Counted from the stretch's first letter, positions 21,323 to 26,311 are shown. The stretch: DNA of 64,000 bases from a bacterium (GCA_030652805.1 JAUSPT010000032.1:109992-173991), one strand, 5' to 3'. Translations and numbers: made by a program. The notes: generated by a model from the letters alone, not told the origin.

Positions 21323-21976
21323 TTATAGAAATAAATCTATTGTTTCTGTTCCATAACTTAAAGTAACACTTGATTCTGAAATTTTGCTGACTTTTAACTC
21401 TCCCACAGTACTTCCTTCATTAACATAATGAACACTTTTTGTCTTTCCGTTTTCTATAATTGCCTGAGGGCTCTCATCTAAGACTATTCCAACCAGATTT
21501 AGATCCTTTACAAGCTGCTTCATATCTATCCCTACCTCTGGCAGAATAACAGGACTGGCTGTTAATTGCTTAAATAGATTACGCTTTTTTGCCATTGATG
21601 AATAGAATGAAGATGGTTCCAAATTCTGGATTTTTAGATCAATTTGTTGCTTTTTCTCTATGCTTTTTAAGGAAACGACTCTTGAGCTTGGGATTAATAT
21701 CTCTTCTGATGTTCCAGGTCTTATCCAGATATAAGCTGCATAAATAAGAAGCACAAAAACAACAACAGAAAGTATTTGATTAATTGACATGACTGGTTTT
21801 GTTTTTAATATAGAAAGCACCTGTTTTAACCGATCAGAGCGAACCGAAAATTTTACAAGCTCCCTAGAACCTGTTTGCTCCTTTTTTTCTCCTCTTATTA
21901 ATCTCAACAATCGATCTTCAGGATGAAAGTTATTCATTACGCTCAATAGTTTTAAGAACAAGTTCTTTATCAACAA
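21323..21976 (-). CDS. Membrane-anchored hypothetical protein, possibly GspC/PilP-like secretin-interacting component
   Basis: One TM (ILSVVVFVLLIYAAYIWI) and a beta-rich C-terminus (VHYVNEGSTVGELKVSKISESSVTLSY). Sits between the ExeA-like gene and the secretin. The likely start is the ATG at 21937 (ATGAATAA overlap with the upstream stop). Confidence 0.4.
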   Translation of the reverse strand: MLIKNLFLKLLSVMNNFHPEDRLLRLIRGEKKEQTGSRELVKFSVRSDRLKQVLSILKTKPVMSINQILSVVVFVLLIYAAYIWIRPGTSEEILIPSSRVVSLKSIEKKQQIDLKIQNLEPSSFYSSMAKKRNLFKQLTASPVILPEVGIDMKQLVKDLNLVGIVLDESPQAIIENGKTKSVHYVNEGSTVGELKVSKISESSVTLSYGTETIDLFL

Positions 21977-22742
21977 TCTTCTTGCCCTCTATAATCAAAT
22001 TCTCTAATGTATCGTGACACAATAGGGCTATTCTTCTGGGATATCCAAGAGAGTATTTATATATCTCATCCATAGCGTCATCTGTAAAAACATCTCTAAA
22101 ATTATCCACTCCTGCCTGCCTGAGACGAAACAGAATCAGTTTCTTTGTATCCTCCTGGCCTAGAGGGTTGATAATATATTTTAAACTAACTCTGTCAGTA
22201 AAATTCCTGACATGTTTTATCTTAGGAAGCAATTCCAGCTGAGCCATGATAATAAGCTGTAAGAGCTTATATTTATTAGTTTCATAATTCAAAAGAGTGC
22301 GCAAAATCTCCAAAAAAGGCAGTGACAGCTTTTGTCCTTCATCAATTAATAGAACTATTGTTCTCTCTTCATCTACGCCTTTCTGGAACAGGTACCTTTC
22401 AATAGCATCCTGACAATCCATTGCTGAACGGATGCCTTCATTTATGCCAAAACGCCTTGCTAAGGAATTAAGGAATTGAAATTCTGATTTATAGTTTGGA
22501 TTCAATATCATATGAAAAATAAAGCTATTTTCGTTATGAAAAGATTGTATAAGAATTCTGCTCAATGTAGTCTTTCCAACACCAACATCCCCAAGAATTA
22601 AGCTTAGTCCTCTTTTTAGGCGAATTGCAATCTCAAGTCTTCTTAATGCACTGCCATGTTCTCGCGATTGATAAAAGAAATTAGGATCCGGACTCGTAGA
22701 AAAGGGTTCTTCTTTTAATCCTAATTCATTAAAATAACTCAT
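21930..22742 (-). CDS. ExeA/GspA-like AAA ATPase
   Basis: FF.S..H..AL..L, LILGDVGVGKTTL (Walker A), VLLIDEGQ (Walker B). COG3267-type architecture. Confidence 0.82.
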   Translation of the reverse strand: MSYFNELGLKEEPFSTSPDPNFFYQSREHGSALRRLEIAIRLKRGLSLILGDVGVGKTTLSRILIQSFHNENSFIFHMILNPNYKSEFQFLNSLARRFGINEGIRSAMDCQDAIERYLFQKGVDEERTIVLLIDEGQKLSLPFLEILRTLLNYETNKYKLLQLIIMAQLELLPKIKHVRNFTDRVSLKYIINPLGQEDTKKLILFRLRQAGVDNFRDVFTDDAMDEIYKYSLGYPRRIALLCHDTLENLIIEGKKIVDKELVLKTIERNE

Positions 22743-22975
22743 TTTAATGCCTCTTCTTTTATCCTGCTCTGTATTTTCCCTATAGAAATCCCCTCTTTTC
22801 TCAATCTTCTTATTTCAGCTAACTGCTTAACTGTAGAATCATCAAAGTATCTGTAGTTTAATTGAGACGTTCGCCCAACTTCTTTTATTAAGCCAAGTTT
22901 TAAGTAATACTTTATTGTATAAACAGAGATACTTGTCGCACATGATAAGTCTTTAACAAGATAAATATTTTCCAT
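22739..22975 (-). CDS. MerR-family helix-turn-helix protein
   Basis: YLVKDLSCATSISVYTIKYYLKLGLI...RYFDDSTVKQLAEIRRLRKEGISI. First gene of the secretion operon. Confidence 0.8.
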   Translation of the reverse strand: MENIYLVKDLSCATSISVYTIKYYLKLGLIKEVGRTSQLNYRYFDDSTVKQLAEIRRLRKEGISIGKIQSRIKEEALK

Positions 22976-22984
22976 AATTCCAAT

Positions 22985-23204
22985 CTACTCTCTAGGTGAA
23001 GAGTAGTTTAGCAAAACACTCATTGCTTGTCAAGTCAGTCTGTTGTCCCCTCAACCGCCTGCTTGAACTCACCCTGACCCTCTCTCCCCCTCAACCGCCT
23101 GCTTTAGCTGGCGGTTATTGTAGGGGTATTGTAGGAGCACAATATCTTGTGCCCAATCTCGTTTGTCATTCTACGATTTGATTGGGAAATTCAGGTGGTT
23201 GAGG
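22985..23204. repeat. Repeat- and hairpin-dense intergenic region between the secretion operon and the defense operon
   Basis: IR CTACTCT-N8-AGAGTAG (22985-23006). CCCCTCAACCGCCTGCTT occurs twice, at 23047 and 23087. Hairpin AACCGCC-N9-GGCGGTT (23094-23116). TATTGTAGG occurs twice in tandem. Palindrome GCACAAtatcTTGTGC (23137-52). CCCAATC/GATTGGG arms. An inverted copy CAGGTGGTTGAGG lies at 23192-23204. Confidence 0.75.
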
Positions 23205-23229
23205 ATTTGAGTGTGTTTTTTCTGTATTT

Positions 23230-24630
23230 TTATTTTGGTCGCAGTTTTTTTGTTTGAAAGTATTTGTTGATAGCATTACTTTTCGTCTCACATTTAATAA
23301 TAAAATCATATTCTCGAATTATGCCCATCAAACTCCAAACAAGAGCTATCTTCAAAGCAAGCAAATCTTCCCAGCAGTTTTTATTTTCCTCAAAATCTTT
23401 GCCGTGGTGAATAATTTTATTACGCCAATCTAAAAGTTTTCTATATTTGGCATAGTTTTCAATTCTTTTCTCAAGATCCATTGAGGTTAATAATGAAACG
23501 TTTTCTGCTATAATATGACTGTTGGTACCTGATTCTCCTGTAGAAAACAACGTCTCTAATGAGATGAAATAGTCGAGTGCAGAATCCGTGTTGTCTTCTT
23601 CTATAATTGCCCTAAGAAACCAGTCGAGAGAACGAAGTATTTTCTTTGGAAGCGTTTTGTTCTGAGATTCTATGCAAATTTGGTTAAATTTTCCAAGATG
23701 ACATTTATTCATGAGTTCTGTTACTGTTTCGTTAGTTATAATTATTTTTTCCCTTGAAAGCATTAATTTTTCAAATCGTGTATTAATTTGTATAATTGCC
23801 TTTTCTTTTCCTATTTCGTGTATAAAATATTTCTGGTATCCAGTTTGATTGTTTGTTACAAAAAGTCCTGTAGTAACAGTCTCTTTTTTTATTTCAAACC
23901 CCTTTTGCGCATTTCCAAGAAATGTGTCACAGACATGCAAAAAGGAGAAAAGTGTTTTAAATTCAGTCAAAGCATGTTCAAATACTGATGAAAGCTCATC
24001 GCTCAGGTGAAACCCATTAATATTTATCTCAAGAGCTGTATGCCCTTTCAATGCCTCTCGTTTTAGTGGGGATGAGATAGATGGAAATAACTTGGAAAAA
24101 TCCAATCCCCCTTCAATATTTTTAGGTAGTTTTTGTATGTAACCGTCATCAACATCGTTGAGAGATATGTTCCCAATTTTTAATTTTTTGGGACCATGTA
24201 AAATTACCAGATCAGTAAAAAGCAATACTTTATACTTGGCGCTATTTTTCTTGAGAGTATCTTTAATAAATTTTTCAGCAAAATAAACATCTTCTTGTTC
24301 TAGATACTTGTTTAACACGTCAGTAGGCGAGTGCTCTCGAGAAATTATTCGCTTTGTTAAGTTATGTATTAGTGAACGATAAAGGGCTGAAGCAGACGCA
24401 TTATTAATTTTTTCTTTATATTTAGGTAGTTCGTCAATGACAAAATTTTTAAACGCATAGGGAAGATAGAGAAATTGTTTGTTGTCGTATTTTAAATTTC
24501 CATCGAATACATCTAAACTTTCTCTCTTTTCTTCATCAAATGAATTTTCAAGTCCAATGCAATTTAAACCGATTCGTGTGATAGCAATTAATTTGTGTTC
24601 AAATTTATTCTTTCCTTTGAAAATTTTCAC
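23230..24630 (-). CDS. 466-aa hypothetical protein with a C-terminal HEPN-like region (candidate ApeA-like abortive-infection RNase)
   Basis: The C-terminal helical region ALDYFISLETLFS...IAENVSLL...LLDWRNKIIHHG contains an Rx4H motif (R403..H408, nt 23407-23424). No recognisable N-terminal domain. Last gene of the methyltransferase-nuclease operon. Confidence 0.5.
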   Translation of the reverse strand: MKIFKGKNKFEHKLIAITRIGLNCIGLENSFDEEKRESLDVFDGNLKYDNKQFLYLPYAFKNFVIDELPKYKEKINNASASALYRSLIHNLTKRIISREHSPTDVLNKYLEQEDVYFAEKFIKDTLKKNSAKYKVLLFTDLVILHGPKKLKIGNISLNDVDDGYIQKLPKNIEGGLDFSKLFPSISSPLKREALKGHTALEININGFHLSDELSSVFEHALTEFKTLFSFLHVCDTFLGNAQKGFEIKKETVTTGLFVTNNQTGYQKYFIHEIGKEKAIIQINTRFEKLMLSREKIIITNETVTELMNKCHLGKFNQICIESQNKTLPKKILRSLDWFLRAIIEEDNTDSALDYFISLETLFSTGESGTNSHIIAENVSLLTSMDLEKRIENYAKYRKLLDWRNKIIHHGKDFEENKNCWEDLLALKIALVWSLMGIIREYDFIIKCETKSNAINKYFQTKKLRPK

Positions 24631-24699
24631 GCTTTTTCTCCATCTGATGTCTACTTTAAAGCAAATCGGGAAAATGTCAGGTGGAACGATTTAATAGAA

Positions 24700-25308
24700 T
24701 CATATTTTTATAAACTCTTTGAGAAATTTTGGTCTTGCATAAAAAGCTCTTGATGTAGATCCATGACCTGCGCCTTTTGTTCTTGGCTGAATATAAACAC
24801 CCATTGCACCTGTTAATGAATCAAATCCCCGAGAAGAATCAAGCAAAGCGTCTCTAACAAGATCATAGTCTGCTTTTACTGCTTCGTACAAGCTATCGTG
24901 CAAATCAAATTCAACGATAGAATGAATATAGCTTGGATCATTTACGGTATTCCCAACTATTCTTGCGACAACAACTGCTTTTTTAAGCTTTGCCAACAAG
25001 TGACTATCCTTAAACTTTTTCTGACAAACATTGACAGGATCAATCATCGTAATAGCCATAGTCTCTTTGAATGCAAGTTTTCCACTCTTTAGATATTTCA
25101 ATGGAATTGATTTTAACTCCCAAGAACCAAAATTAGGTGATTGGGCAGAATTTATAGGCAATTCTAAAAACCGCTCAAAGACATGACCAGCCCAACCTTT
25201 ATTTACTTTCATGTTTCGATATATAGTAATTCCATATTCATTAGCTAATTCGTGAAGTTCTTTACCTACAAGTTGCTGTAATTTCTCTACGGCTTCCGTT
25301 CTTTTCAT
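24700..25308 (-). CDS. MutH/Sau3AI-fold type II restriction endonuclease-like protein
   Basis: NKGWAGHVFERFLELPINSAQSPNFGSWELKSIPL aligns by eye to E. coli MutH [36 protein letters not shown]. ExK is conserved, but the D70 position reads N. Confidence 0.75.
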   Translation of the reverse strand: MKRTEAVEKLQQLVGKELHELANEYGITIYRNMKVNKGWAGHVFERFLELPINSAQSPNFGSWELKSIPLKYLKSGKLAFKETMAITMIDPVNVCQKKFKDSHLLAKLKKAVVVARIVGNTVNDPSYIHSIVEFDLHDSLYEAVKADYDLVRDALLDSSRGFDSLTGAMGVYIQPRTKGAGHGSTSRAFYARPKFLKEFIKI

Positions 25309-25325
25309 TTTTAATTTCTCCTACA

Positions 25326-26180
25326 TTATGGCAATAAGCCGTATTCACTTTCTTTTTCTCGAACTTCATTATTTGAAGATAATGATAATTTATTGTTAAC
25401 AAGCTCGTCTTTCAACCTTGGAATAGCATACTTATCAAAATATTCCTGTTCCAAATCTATGCCAGCAAATTTGCGCTTATGTTTTAATGCTGCGACTCCA
25501 GTGGTTGCACTGCCACAAAAAGGGTCTAATATGATGTCTCCTTCATTACTTGTGGCTAATATCACTCTTTCTAATAAGGATTCTGGTTTTTGAGTTGGGT
25601 GCTTACCATATTTTTTTTCGCCATTTTTTGGTGTTCCAATCGCCCAAATACTTCTCATCTGCTTTTTGGATTTCTTAATAAAATCATTTGGGAAGCAGCC
25701 ATCTCTCATTACATCATAATTAAAAGTATGTTTTGCTTTTTTATCTTTTCTAGCCCATAACAAAGTTTCGTGACTTGCTGTAAACATTCTGCACGAAAGA
25801 TTAGGCGCAGCATTTGGTTTATACCAACAAATATCATTTACGATATGCCAACCTTGTTTTTGAAGGGCGAAACCACACGCATATATTGAATGATAAGTCC
25901 CTGAAATCCATAAAGAACCATTTGGTTTCAATACACGTTTACACGCTTTGATCCAGTTATAATGGAATTTGAAATCTTCTTCTATCCCTTGGCTTTTATC
26001 CCATTTCCCTTTGTTGACACTCACTCTTTTTCCAGCATGGCAGGTAAATCCGTCATTTGACAGGTTGTATGGCGGATCTGCAAAAATCAAATCAATGACT
26101 TTTTCTGGCAGTTGGTTGAGTGTTTTAACTACATCGCCAAGAAATAATCTGACGTTTATTTCTTTAAAATAGGCTTCCAT
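25326..26180 (-). CDS. Beta-class DNA methyltransferase (DPPY; probably N6-adenine, N4-cytosine not excluded)
   Basis: Motif IV IFADPPYNLS lies near the N-terminus. Motif I ILDPFCGSATTG lies near the C-terminus (beta-class order). Confidence 0.88.
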   Translation of the reverse strand: MEAYFKEINVRLFLGDVVKTLNQLPEKVIDLIFADPPYNLSNDGFTCHAGKRVSVNKGKWDKSQGIEEDFKFHYNWIKACKRVLKPNGSLWISGTYHSIYACGFALQKQGWHIVNDICWYKPNAAPNLSCRMFTASHETLLWARKDKKAKHTFNYDVMRDGCFPNDFIKKSKKQMRSIWAIGTPKNGEKKYGKHPTQKPESLLERVILATSNEGDIILDPFCGSATTGVAALKHKRKFAGIDLEQEYFDKYAIPRLKDELVNNKLSLSSNNEVREKESEYGLLP

Positions 26181-26311
26181 TCTTTATTCCTAAATTTTTC
26201 TCTTCTCTCAATACCTTATTATACCCCACCATCCCAAAATCATAAAGGATAAATTAAGGATAAATGGAGAAGGAGGAAGGAAAAGGGCACAGATAGATTA
26301 TGAAATACTCT

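Follow-up and report, generated by a model that had tools for sequence, protein, structure and literature searches.

Does a gene that directly follows a methylase and a nuclease gene, in the same direction and at a short distance, belong with them to one defence system? This question is raised by a bacterial locus (GCA_030652805.1, JAUSPT010000032.1:109992-173991), the whole 64,000-nt stretch of which is here called the window. On its minus strand, a gene for a 466-aa protein with a HEPN-type motif lies behind a restriction-modification (RM) pair, and a first-pass annotation of the same DNA had read the three genes as one RM-linked system with an abortive-infection effector. It had also placed these genes between two surface-machine loci, and secretion/pilus genes are indeed found on both sides. 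The features are as follows.

25326..26180, minus strand: N6_N4 DNA methylase, beta-class, 284 aa (Pfam, 6.4e-63)
24700..25308, minus strand: MutH/Sau3AI-family nuclease, 202 aa (Pfam MutH, 6.5e-12; NCBIfam Sau3AI, 1.1e-16; PDB Sau3AI 4pxg, 1.7e-9)
24676..26189, minus strand: two-gene type II RM cassette (family matches and extent of DNA similarity)
24631..24699, minus strand: 69-nt spacer from the nuclease stop to the HEPN start, the module junction (from the sequence)
23230..24630, minus strand: HEPN-protein open reading frame, 466 aa, GTG start
23665..24630, minus strand: N-terminal region, residues 1-322
23230..23655, minus strand: C-terminal HEPN domain, residues ~326-466
23407..23424, minus strand: Rx4H catalytic motif R403-N-K-I-I-H408 (read from the sequence; invariance in homologues)
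22976-23229: 254-nt spacer from the HEPN stop to the MerR gene, with structured minus-strand RNA
Upstream flank: Ser/Thr kinase, FHA proteins, two T2SSF (TadB/C-like) genes and a T2SSE-FHA gene
Downstream flank: T2SSF, T2SSE and secretin genes (T2SS/type IV pilus-like locus)

The open reading frame, the shared direction of the three genes, the gaps of 17 nt (between the RM genes) and 69 nt (nuclease to HEPN gene) and the position of WRNKIIHHG were all re-read from the sequence and agree with the earlier description, as do the segments ALDYFISLETLF and IAENVSLL in the 466-aa protein.

The HEPN gene and its product

The gene has GGAG 7 nt 5' of its GTG start, and it is a genuine gene and not a chance open reading frame, as indicated by its full-length homologues and a confident fold model (AlphaFold; pLDDT 88.5 and pTM 0.89 for the 466-aa protein). 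The exact protein is named "HEPN domain-containing protein" at NCBI (MDO9464288.1, from a MAG), and its assignment at the HEPN level has therefore already been annotated. Among the Pfam, NCBIfam, PADLOC and PHROG profiles, the protein has no matches; none of the families of PADLOC-DB v2 (2023) matches it, and phmmer and hmmsearch searches against PDB sequences gave nothing usable. When PADLOC was applied to 25 family members, a single weak match to DzbB was obtained (E 1.5e-4). The GC content of the gene is 0.318, compared with 0.355-0.357 for the RM genes and 0.386 for the window.

The C-terminal HEPN domain

In the predicted model, the C-terminal region is helical (residues 326-462) and forms a four-helix up-and-down bundle, as in the HEPN superfamily. 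The segment WRNKIIHHG comprises residues 402-410, with R403 to H408 at nt 23424 to 23407. The Rx4H motif is located at the C-terminal end of helix 386-409, and its Arg is followed by a polar Asn. The invariant residues of the domain are K330, W337, T348, E359, L361, N377, R389, R403, H408 and G410; the alignment of 25 full-length homologues retains both R403 and H408 throughout. Across 95 distant members of the superfamily, only the columns that correspond to E359, R403 and H408 are invariant. Conservation of the Arg and His, on which the earlier reading depended, thus extends over ~120 diverse homologues.

The closest solved folds include the HepT toxins of HEPN-MNT systems (7ae2, 8xdj and 5yep), and AbiA, Csx1 and AbiV are further matches of lower rank. 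Relatives of the 466-aa protein show sub-threshold Pfam matches to HEPN_MAE_28990 and HepT-like. The HEPN_MAE_28990 match (PF18737) was observed for the superfamily member P0050 (E 1.1e-3; 19.7 bits against a gathering threshold of 26.8), and this is the only Pfam HEPN model touching the superfamily, in one of the 95 members, with the window protein not among them. Because the Rx4H motif is invariant, relatives have sub-threshold HEPN matches and the NCBI name agrees, a C-terminal RNase-type HEPN domain with a conserved catalytic motif is supported for the 466-aa protein, as judged from its sequence and predicted structure. The helical C-terminus with its Rx4H motif had been taken for a HEPN domain in the first-pass annotation, and the predicted bundle fold and the invariant Arg and His in the 25 and 95 homologues bear this out.

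The homologue family and its distribution

A family and a superfamily were defined by an exhaustive HMM search over 1.84 billion representatives, which yielded 27 clusters at E<1e-30, 173 at E<1e-10 and 2006 at E<1e-3. The 27 clusters are full-length relatives of ~465 aa, and most of the 2006 are ~400-aa proteins that were matched via their C-terminal ~140 aa; the size of the superfamily, ~2000 clusters, was counted at 50% identity. Profile-profile comparison showed that the ~400-aa proteins are homologous nearly end to end (probability 99.8%, E 6.6e-30, columns 57-475), indicating that the superfamily has a common architecture beyond the HEPN domain alone. A word-indexed search returned 3 relatives only, even with a 25-sequence profile. 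The window protein falls in a 90%-identity cluster whose representative is 55 aa long and which has members of 42-52 aa, one of them named 'antitoxin YefM'. This grouping looks like a clustering artefact of the protein collection, and the window protein itself was therefore missed by the word-indexed search.

The family is spread sporadically over Desulfobacterales, Omnitrophota, Thermodesulfovibrionales, Planctomycetota and Fusobacterium, and no homologue of the 466-aa protein was found by tblastn in phage and plasmid collections. The closest homologue is P0001 (42% identity, E 5e-100). Its gene is preceded, 24 nt upstream, by a gene for a 579-aa protein (L001 8238-9977; also in L002 and L003) that has no match in Pfam or PADLOC and may be a lineage-specific partner of P0001.

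The genes around other homologues include the following.

L004-L009 (Fusobacterium): Septu PtuA (2e-139) and an HNH protein, adjoining the homologue
L010: PARIS AriAB (2e-59) and a DUF4143 ATPase
L011: integrase, SIR2 and a TPR protein
L014: PLD-SNF2, Eco57I methylase, AlbA_2 and HigBA; also a Y1 transposase
L015: patatin/phospholipase effector
L016: BrxA and a PglX-like methylase
L019: TIR effector/PDC-S35
L020: Drt4 (4e-179)

Homologues are thus found in defence-gene contexts, with Septu, PARIS, TIR, DRT4, BREX, SIR2 and patatin neighbours, as had been anticipated for a defence protein. These variable neighbours are consistent with the pattern expected of a mobile, self-sufficient defence gene, and the contexts are also consistent with the general tendency of HEPN genes to occur in R-M neighbourhoods (PMC3710099). 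In the Septu-containing loci, the ~411-aa superfamily member P0003 is encoded by the third co-directional gene after those of a PtuA-like ATPase and an HNH_5 protein (L004 7708-11236). This order is kept on 6 contigs from different samples, with an identical protein in all six, and could represent a variant of Septu with three genes, one of them for a HEPN protein, although the six may be a single lineage.

The N-terminal region

The first ~330 aa had been described as matching nothing recognisable, and neither profile libraries nor fold comparison produced a recognisable relative. According to the predicted model, this part begins with a helical subdomain (~1-128) and continues with a beta-rich middle subdomain (~130-300), which is followed by two linker helices; 13 beta strands fall within residues 39-298. 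Residues 1-322 were also modelled alone (pLDDT 89.7), again with helical and then beta-rich subdomains, after which comes a long helix, and a match to a P-loop fold was not found for this model. Five N-terminal residues are invariant in the family, namely N76, G206, H208, E212 and S214. Four of these belong to the motif G-[YFCLIH]-H-x3-E-x-S (residues 206-214, nt ~23989-24015), which is invariant in the ~465-aa family and extends from the end of strand 198-207 into helix 215-239. The aligned segment of the ~400-aa superfamily reads V-x-A-R...A-x-E-x-A, indicating that residues 206-214 are a family-specific site. In the ~465-aa family, this site could serve to bind a ligand, as a pocket, or else be a second catalytic centre. 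The ~320-aa α/β N-terminal region may be a sensor or regulatory module, as the analogy to Tha, ApeA and DARNA suggests.

The restriction-modification cassette

The methylase and the endonuclease recur as a pair, as expected of a type II RM system. The same pair is present in 8 other loci (L027-L034), where the nuclease is 80-92% and the methylase 76-84% identical, and the 17-nt spacer between the two genes is kept in all eight. What follows the cassette differs between these loci, with unrelated genes downstream, and the HEPN gene has no homologue in any of the eight. DNA similarity to the other cassettes runs in the window from ~26190 to 24676-24702, ending 0-24 nt past the nuclease stop; it covers 26189..24676 for the closest relatives and ends at the stop codon (~24700) for the others. 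Since the similarity does not reach the HEPN start codon (24630), the RM pair is a closed unit. The two families also differ in size, with 5261 clusters for the nuclease against 27 for the HEPN protein.

Several other observations were made on the cassette. Across unrelated contigs, it shows 75-82% DNA identity with sharp boundaries, which suggests that it has been recently and widely mobilised. The 202-aa nuclease is unusually conserved for a restriction enzyme, as many of its 5261 clusters are 77-96% identical and the best 120 of them (P0159-P0278) 76-100%; the named sources among those 120 are varied and include Thiomargarita, Thermodesulfobacteriota and a Bathymodiolus symbiont. In 117 of the same 120 homologues, the position aligned to the MutH catalytic D70 is Asn (SPN-FGSWELKS), and in 3 it is Asp. 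With Asn at this position, either the catalytic acid would come from elsewhere or the chemistry would be unlike that of MutH. The tetranucleotide GATC is under-represented (o/e 0.65), and GTAC, CTAG and GGCC are lower still; the scarcity of GATC is therefore uninformative on the specificity of the RM system.

Relation between the HEPN gene and the cassette

Within the 69-nt spacer, one weak promoter-like site was observed (CTGACA-16-TAAAGT, 9/12) and no terminator-like site on the minus strand, in a scan that is uninformative, as the counts of both kinds of site in the region equal those of shuffled sequences. Co-transcription of the HEPN gene with the RM genes is possible and would not imply coupling. 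In 25 fetched loci of HEPN-protein homologues, no homologue of the window methylase or nuclease was detected. An all-vs-all BLAST of the neighbours (window and 17 loci) showed that independent loci share the HEPN gene only, with no conserved partner. Five orthologues (L012, L019, L020, L021 and L022) are 58-76% identical to each other and have differing neighbours: L012 has an Eco57I-type methylase, L019 a TIR protein, L020 a DRT4 reverse transcriptase and L022 an IS200-like transposase. A methylase-type module lies nearby in 4 of ~11 independent loci (the window, L012, L014 and the BREX locus L016), a small sample with many short contigs. Beside the other homologues, these modules belong to unrelated types (Eco57I/type IIG and BREX), and most loci are without RM genes.

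Because the RM cassette is closed, the HEPN gene has no conserved partner and their GC contents differ, an RM-linked three-gene system is not supported at the level of sequence, and the HEPN gene does not appear to be a third component of the RM pair. The proposal that the three genes form one system therefore did not hold, given eight RM loci without the HEPN gene and 25 HEPN loci without this RM pair. A survey of homologues for co-occurrence with RM genes had also been proposed, and it revealed no conserved RM partner, with RM-type genes near 3-4 of the ~11 loci. A looser functional synergy of the HEPN family with modification-based systems is possible. At least 16 HEPN clades have been linked to R-M systems (Anantharaman et al. 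2013, PMC3710099), and a linkage between HEPN and RM genes is in general not new (PMC3710099). For the window, it follows that tight co-directional spacing beside an RM pair is no evidence of a coupled system.

Comparison with known systems

Multiple HEPN proteins with roles in defence have been described. Tha is a tail-activated HEPN anti-phage protein of Staphylococcus aureus prophages, and it acts as a standalone abortive-infection RNase that is triggered by a phage component (PMC11087260). Like Tha, the 466-aa protein combines in one chain an N-terminal part of unrecognisable kind and a HEPN domain at the C-terminus, and it shares the R-N-x3-H motif (RNSIMH in Tha-1, RNKIIH here). However, Tha-1 has 301 aa, and Tha is encoded by prophages and has its own inhibitor, Ith, whereas no phage or plasmid homologue of the 466-aa protein was found. 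Homology was rejected after hhalign comparison with 80alpha gp03 (E 0.13 with the superfamily profile and 0.38 with the family profile, probability <1%). The 466-aa protein would thus most resemble Tha in its manner of working, by analogy, and is not homologous to Tha-1.

ApeA is reportedly the single-gene HEPN defence of Gao 2020. As is proposed for the 466-aa protein, one gene suffices for defence, and its product has sensor regions ahead of a HEPN domain at the C-terminus. ApeA is a mainly helical three-domain protein with a split HEPN domain that carries insertions and ends at residue 583 in Ec2ApeA; it forms decameric rings, its tRNA-anticodon RNase is controlled through a ligand pocket that lies away from the active site (10.64898/2026.01.26.701840), and it is sometimes embedded in RM operons (PMC3710099). 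In contrast, the 466-aa protein is smaller, with a beta-rich middle and a compact HEPN domain of ~140 aa. Pfam HEPN_Apea and ApeA_NTD1 and PADLOC ApeA have no match in the window protein (at E<=1), nor in the 25 family members or the 95 superfamily members, and ApeA was therefore rejected. The earlier label of 'ApeA/Abi type' does not fit in this respect, as the ApeA profiles are unmatched and the helical architecture of ApeA is unlike that of the beta-rich 466-aa protein.

PrrC and RloC are HEPN anticodon nucleases encoded beside RM genes and have been proposed as a second line of defence. In both, the N-terminal part is an ABC-ATPase; PrrC is encoded within a type Ic hsd system, which also regulates it. 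The 466-aa protein is likewise a HEPN protein encoded beside restriction-modification genes, but it has no match to an NTPase family and its RM linkage is not conserved, so it was not assigned to this group. HepT is a minimal HEPN protein of ~130 aa with an MNT antitoxin, and Csm6 carries a CARF sensor for cyclic oligoadenylates. A HEPN-MNT toxin was rejected, as the window has no adjacent MNT gene and the homologue loci have no conserved small neighbour. A CARF domain, as in Csm6/Csx1, is absent from the 466-aa protein. In DARNA, an N-terminal HEPN domain is followed by a C-terminal helical ssDNA-sensing domain (10.64898/2026.02.22.705581), and this system was also rejected, since the HEPN domain is C-terminal in the 466-aa protein. 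Members of the MAE_28990/MAE_18760-like HEPN clade are fused to varied α/β N-terminal domains and occur in methylase-containing operons (Anantharaman 2013, PMC3710099). The likeness to this clade consists of the weak Pfam touch on P0050, but that match is sub-threshold and the window protein has none.

The family is uncharacterised and unmatched in Pfam, NCBIfam, PHROG and PADLOC v2; single-gene HEPN effectors in defence islands are already well known. If the family protects against phage, it would add a widespread HEPN effector (~2000 clusters) to the defence catalogue. Sensing is the least understood step for single-protein abortive-infection systems, and a protective family could reveal, in its unrecognised N-terminal region, a new infection-sensing mechanism.

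Proposed function and alternative explanations

The best explanation of the locus is that the HEPN gene and the RM cassette form a small defence islet between the two secretion/pilus loci. The 466-aa gene is probably an autonomous single-gene HEPN-superfamily module that landed beside an unrelated type II RM cassette, and its product would, by analogy, be an Abi-like RNase. RNase activity, toxicity and phage protection are attributed to the family by analogy with Tha, ApeA, DARNA and PrrC/RloC. As in these systems, the C-terminal HEPN domains would dimerise, and R403 and H408 would together make up a composite RNase site that needs no metal. The N-terminal region would keep the enzyme off until an infection cue appears, which could be a phage protein, a small molecule or a nucleic-acid signal, and the cluster N76/H208/E212/S214 may form the site where this cue binds. 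Once activated, the enzyme would cut cellular RNA (tRNA or mRNA), by which translation would stop and the infection be aborted. The adjacency to the RM genes would reflect the clustering of defence islands, possibly with read-through transcription and with no obligatory partnership. A wider and more tentative reading is that the ~465-aa family and the ~400-aa superfamily of >2000 clusters together might constitute an undescribed, widespread single-gene antiviral system, in which the N-terminal region with its N/H/E/S cluster is a new kind of sensor gating a HEPN RNase. That an antiviral HEPN protein additionally monitors the adjacent modification system in loci such as the window is less likely.

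The HEPN protein might instead be a coupled third component of the RM system, a PrrC-like guard that is silenced by the RM enzymes and freed when a phage inhibits or overwhelms restriction. The co-directional arrangement, the 69 nt to the nuclease stop and the lack of a terminator-like site between them would fit such a guard, as would the methylase-type modules near homologues in L012, L014 and L016, and PrrC-EcoprrI and the R-M-linked HEPN clades (at least 16; PMC3710099) are precedents. We nevertheless consider it unlikely: the eight RM loci lack the HEPN gene and the DNA homology of the cassette ends before the HEPN start, no homologue locus has a MutH-type nuclease or the window methylase, the methylases of other loci are of unrelated types where RM genes occur at all, close orthologues exchange their neighbours, and neither an ABC-ATPase nor another regulatory domain like that of PrrC is present in the 466-aa protein. 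A selfish addiction module, in which a HEPN toxin with its own N-terminal region or a small neighbour as antitoxin would stabilise a mobile islet, is rather unlikely as well. The HepT toxins among the closest solved folds (7ae2, 8xdj and 5yep) point in this direction, together with the low GC relative to the host and the mobile elements, toxin-antitoxin pairs and transposases nearby (HigBA and the Y1 transposase in L014; IS200-like in L022). However, neither an MNT gene nor any other conserved small gene adjoins a homologue, the protein is three times as big as HepT and includes a large additional region that is conserved, and the neighbours are mainly bona fide antiviral systems.

A role outside defence, as a housekeeping RNA-processing enzyme or a non-catalytic RNA or nucleotide binder that is located here by accident, seems very improbable. 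Some HEPN families are indeed non-catalytic binders or RNA processors (PMC3710099), and no model in the defence databases matches the protein, but the catalytic Arg and His are invariant across the ~120 diverse homologues, the distribution over distant bacterial groups is sporadic, the neighbourhoods are variable and rich in defence genes, and the GC content is below that of the host.

Surroundings of the islet

Neither an Rfam match nor a tRNA was detected in the window, and this includes the 254-nt spacer between the HEPN stop and the MerR gene. Downstream of this spacer, a 78-aa MerR-family gene overlaps a gene for an AAA_22 (ExeA-like) ATPase by 4 nt (21930-22975, minus strand). The pair heads the secretin/T2SSE/T2SSF locus and is an unusual combination of regulator and ATPase for a pilus/T2SS operon. 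The RNA of the spacer itself has a minimum free energy of -83 kcal/mol (z -5.1 against shuffles), and the exact 17-nt direct repeat AGCAGGCGGTTGAGGGG is present at 23047-23063 and 23087-23103, with 0 copies expected by chance. The spacer could act as a terminator or insulator or as a leader for the MerR/AAA_22 pilus operon; alternatively, it could be what is left of an insertion boundary.
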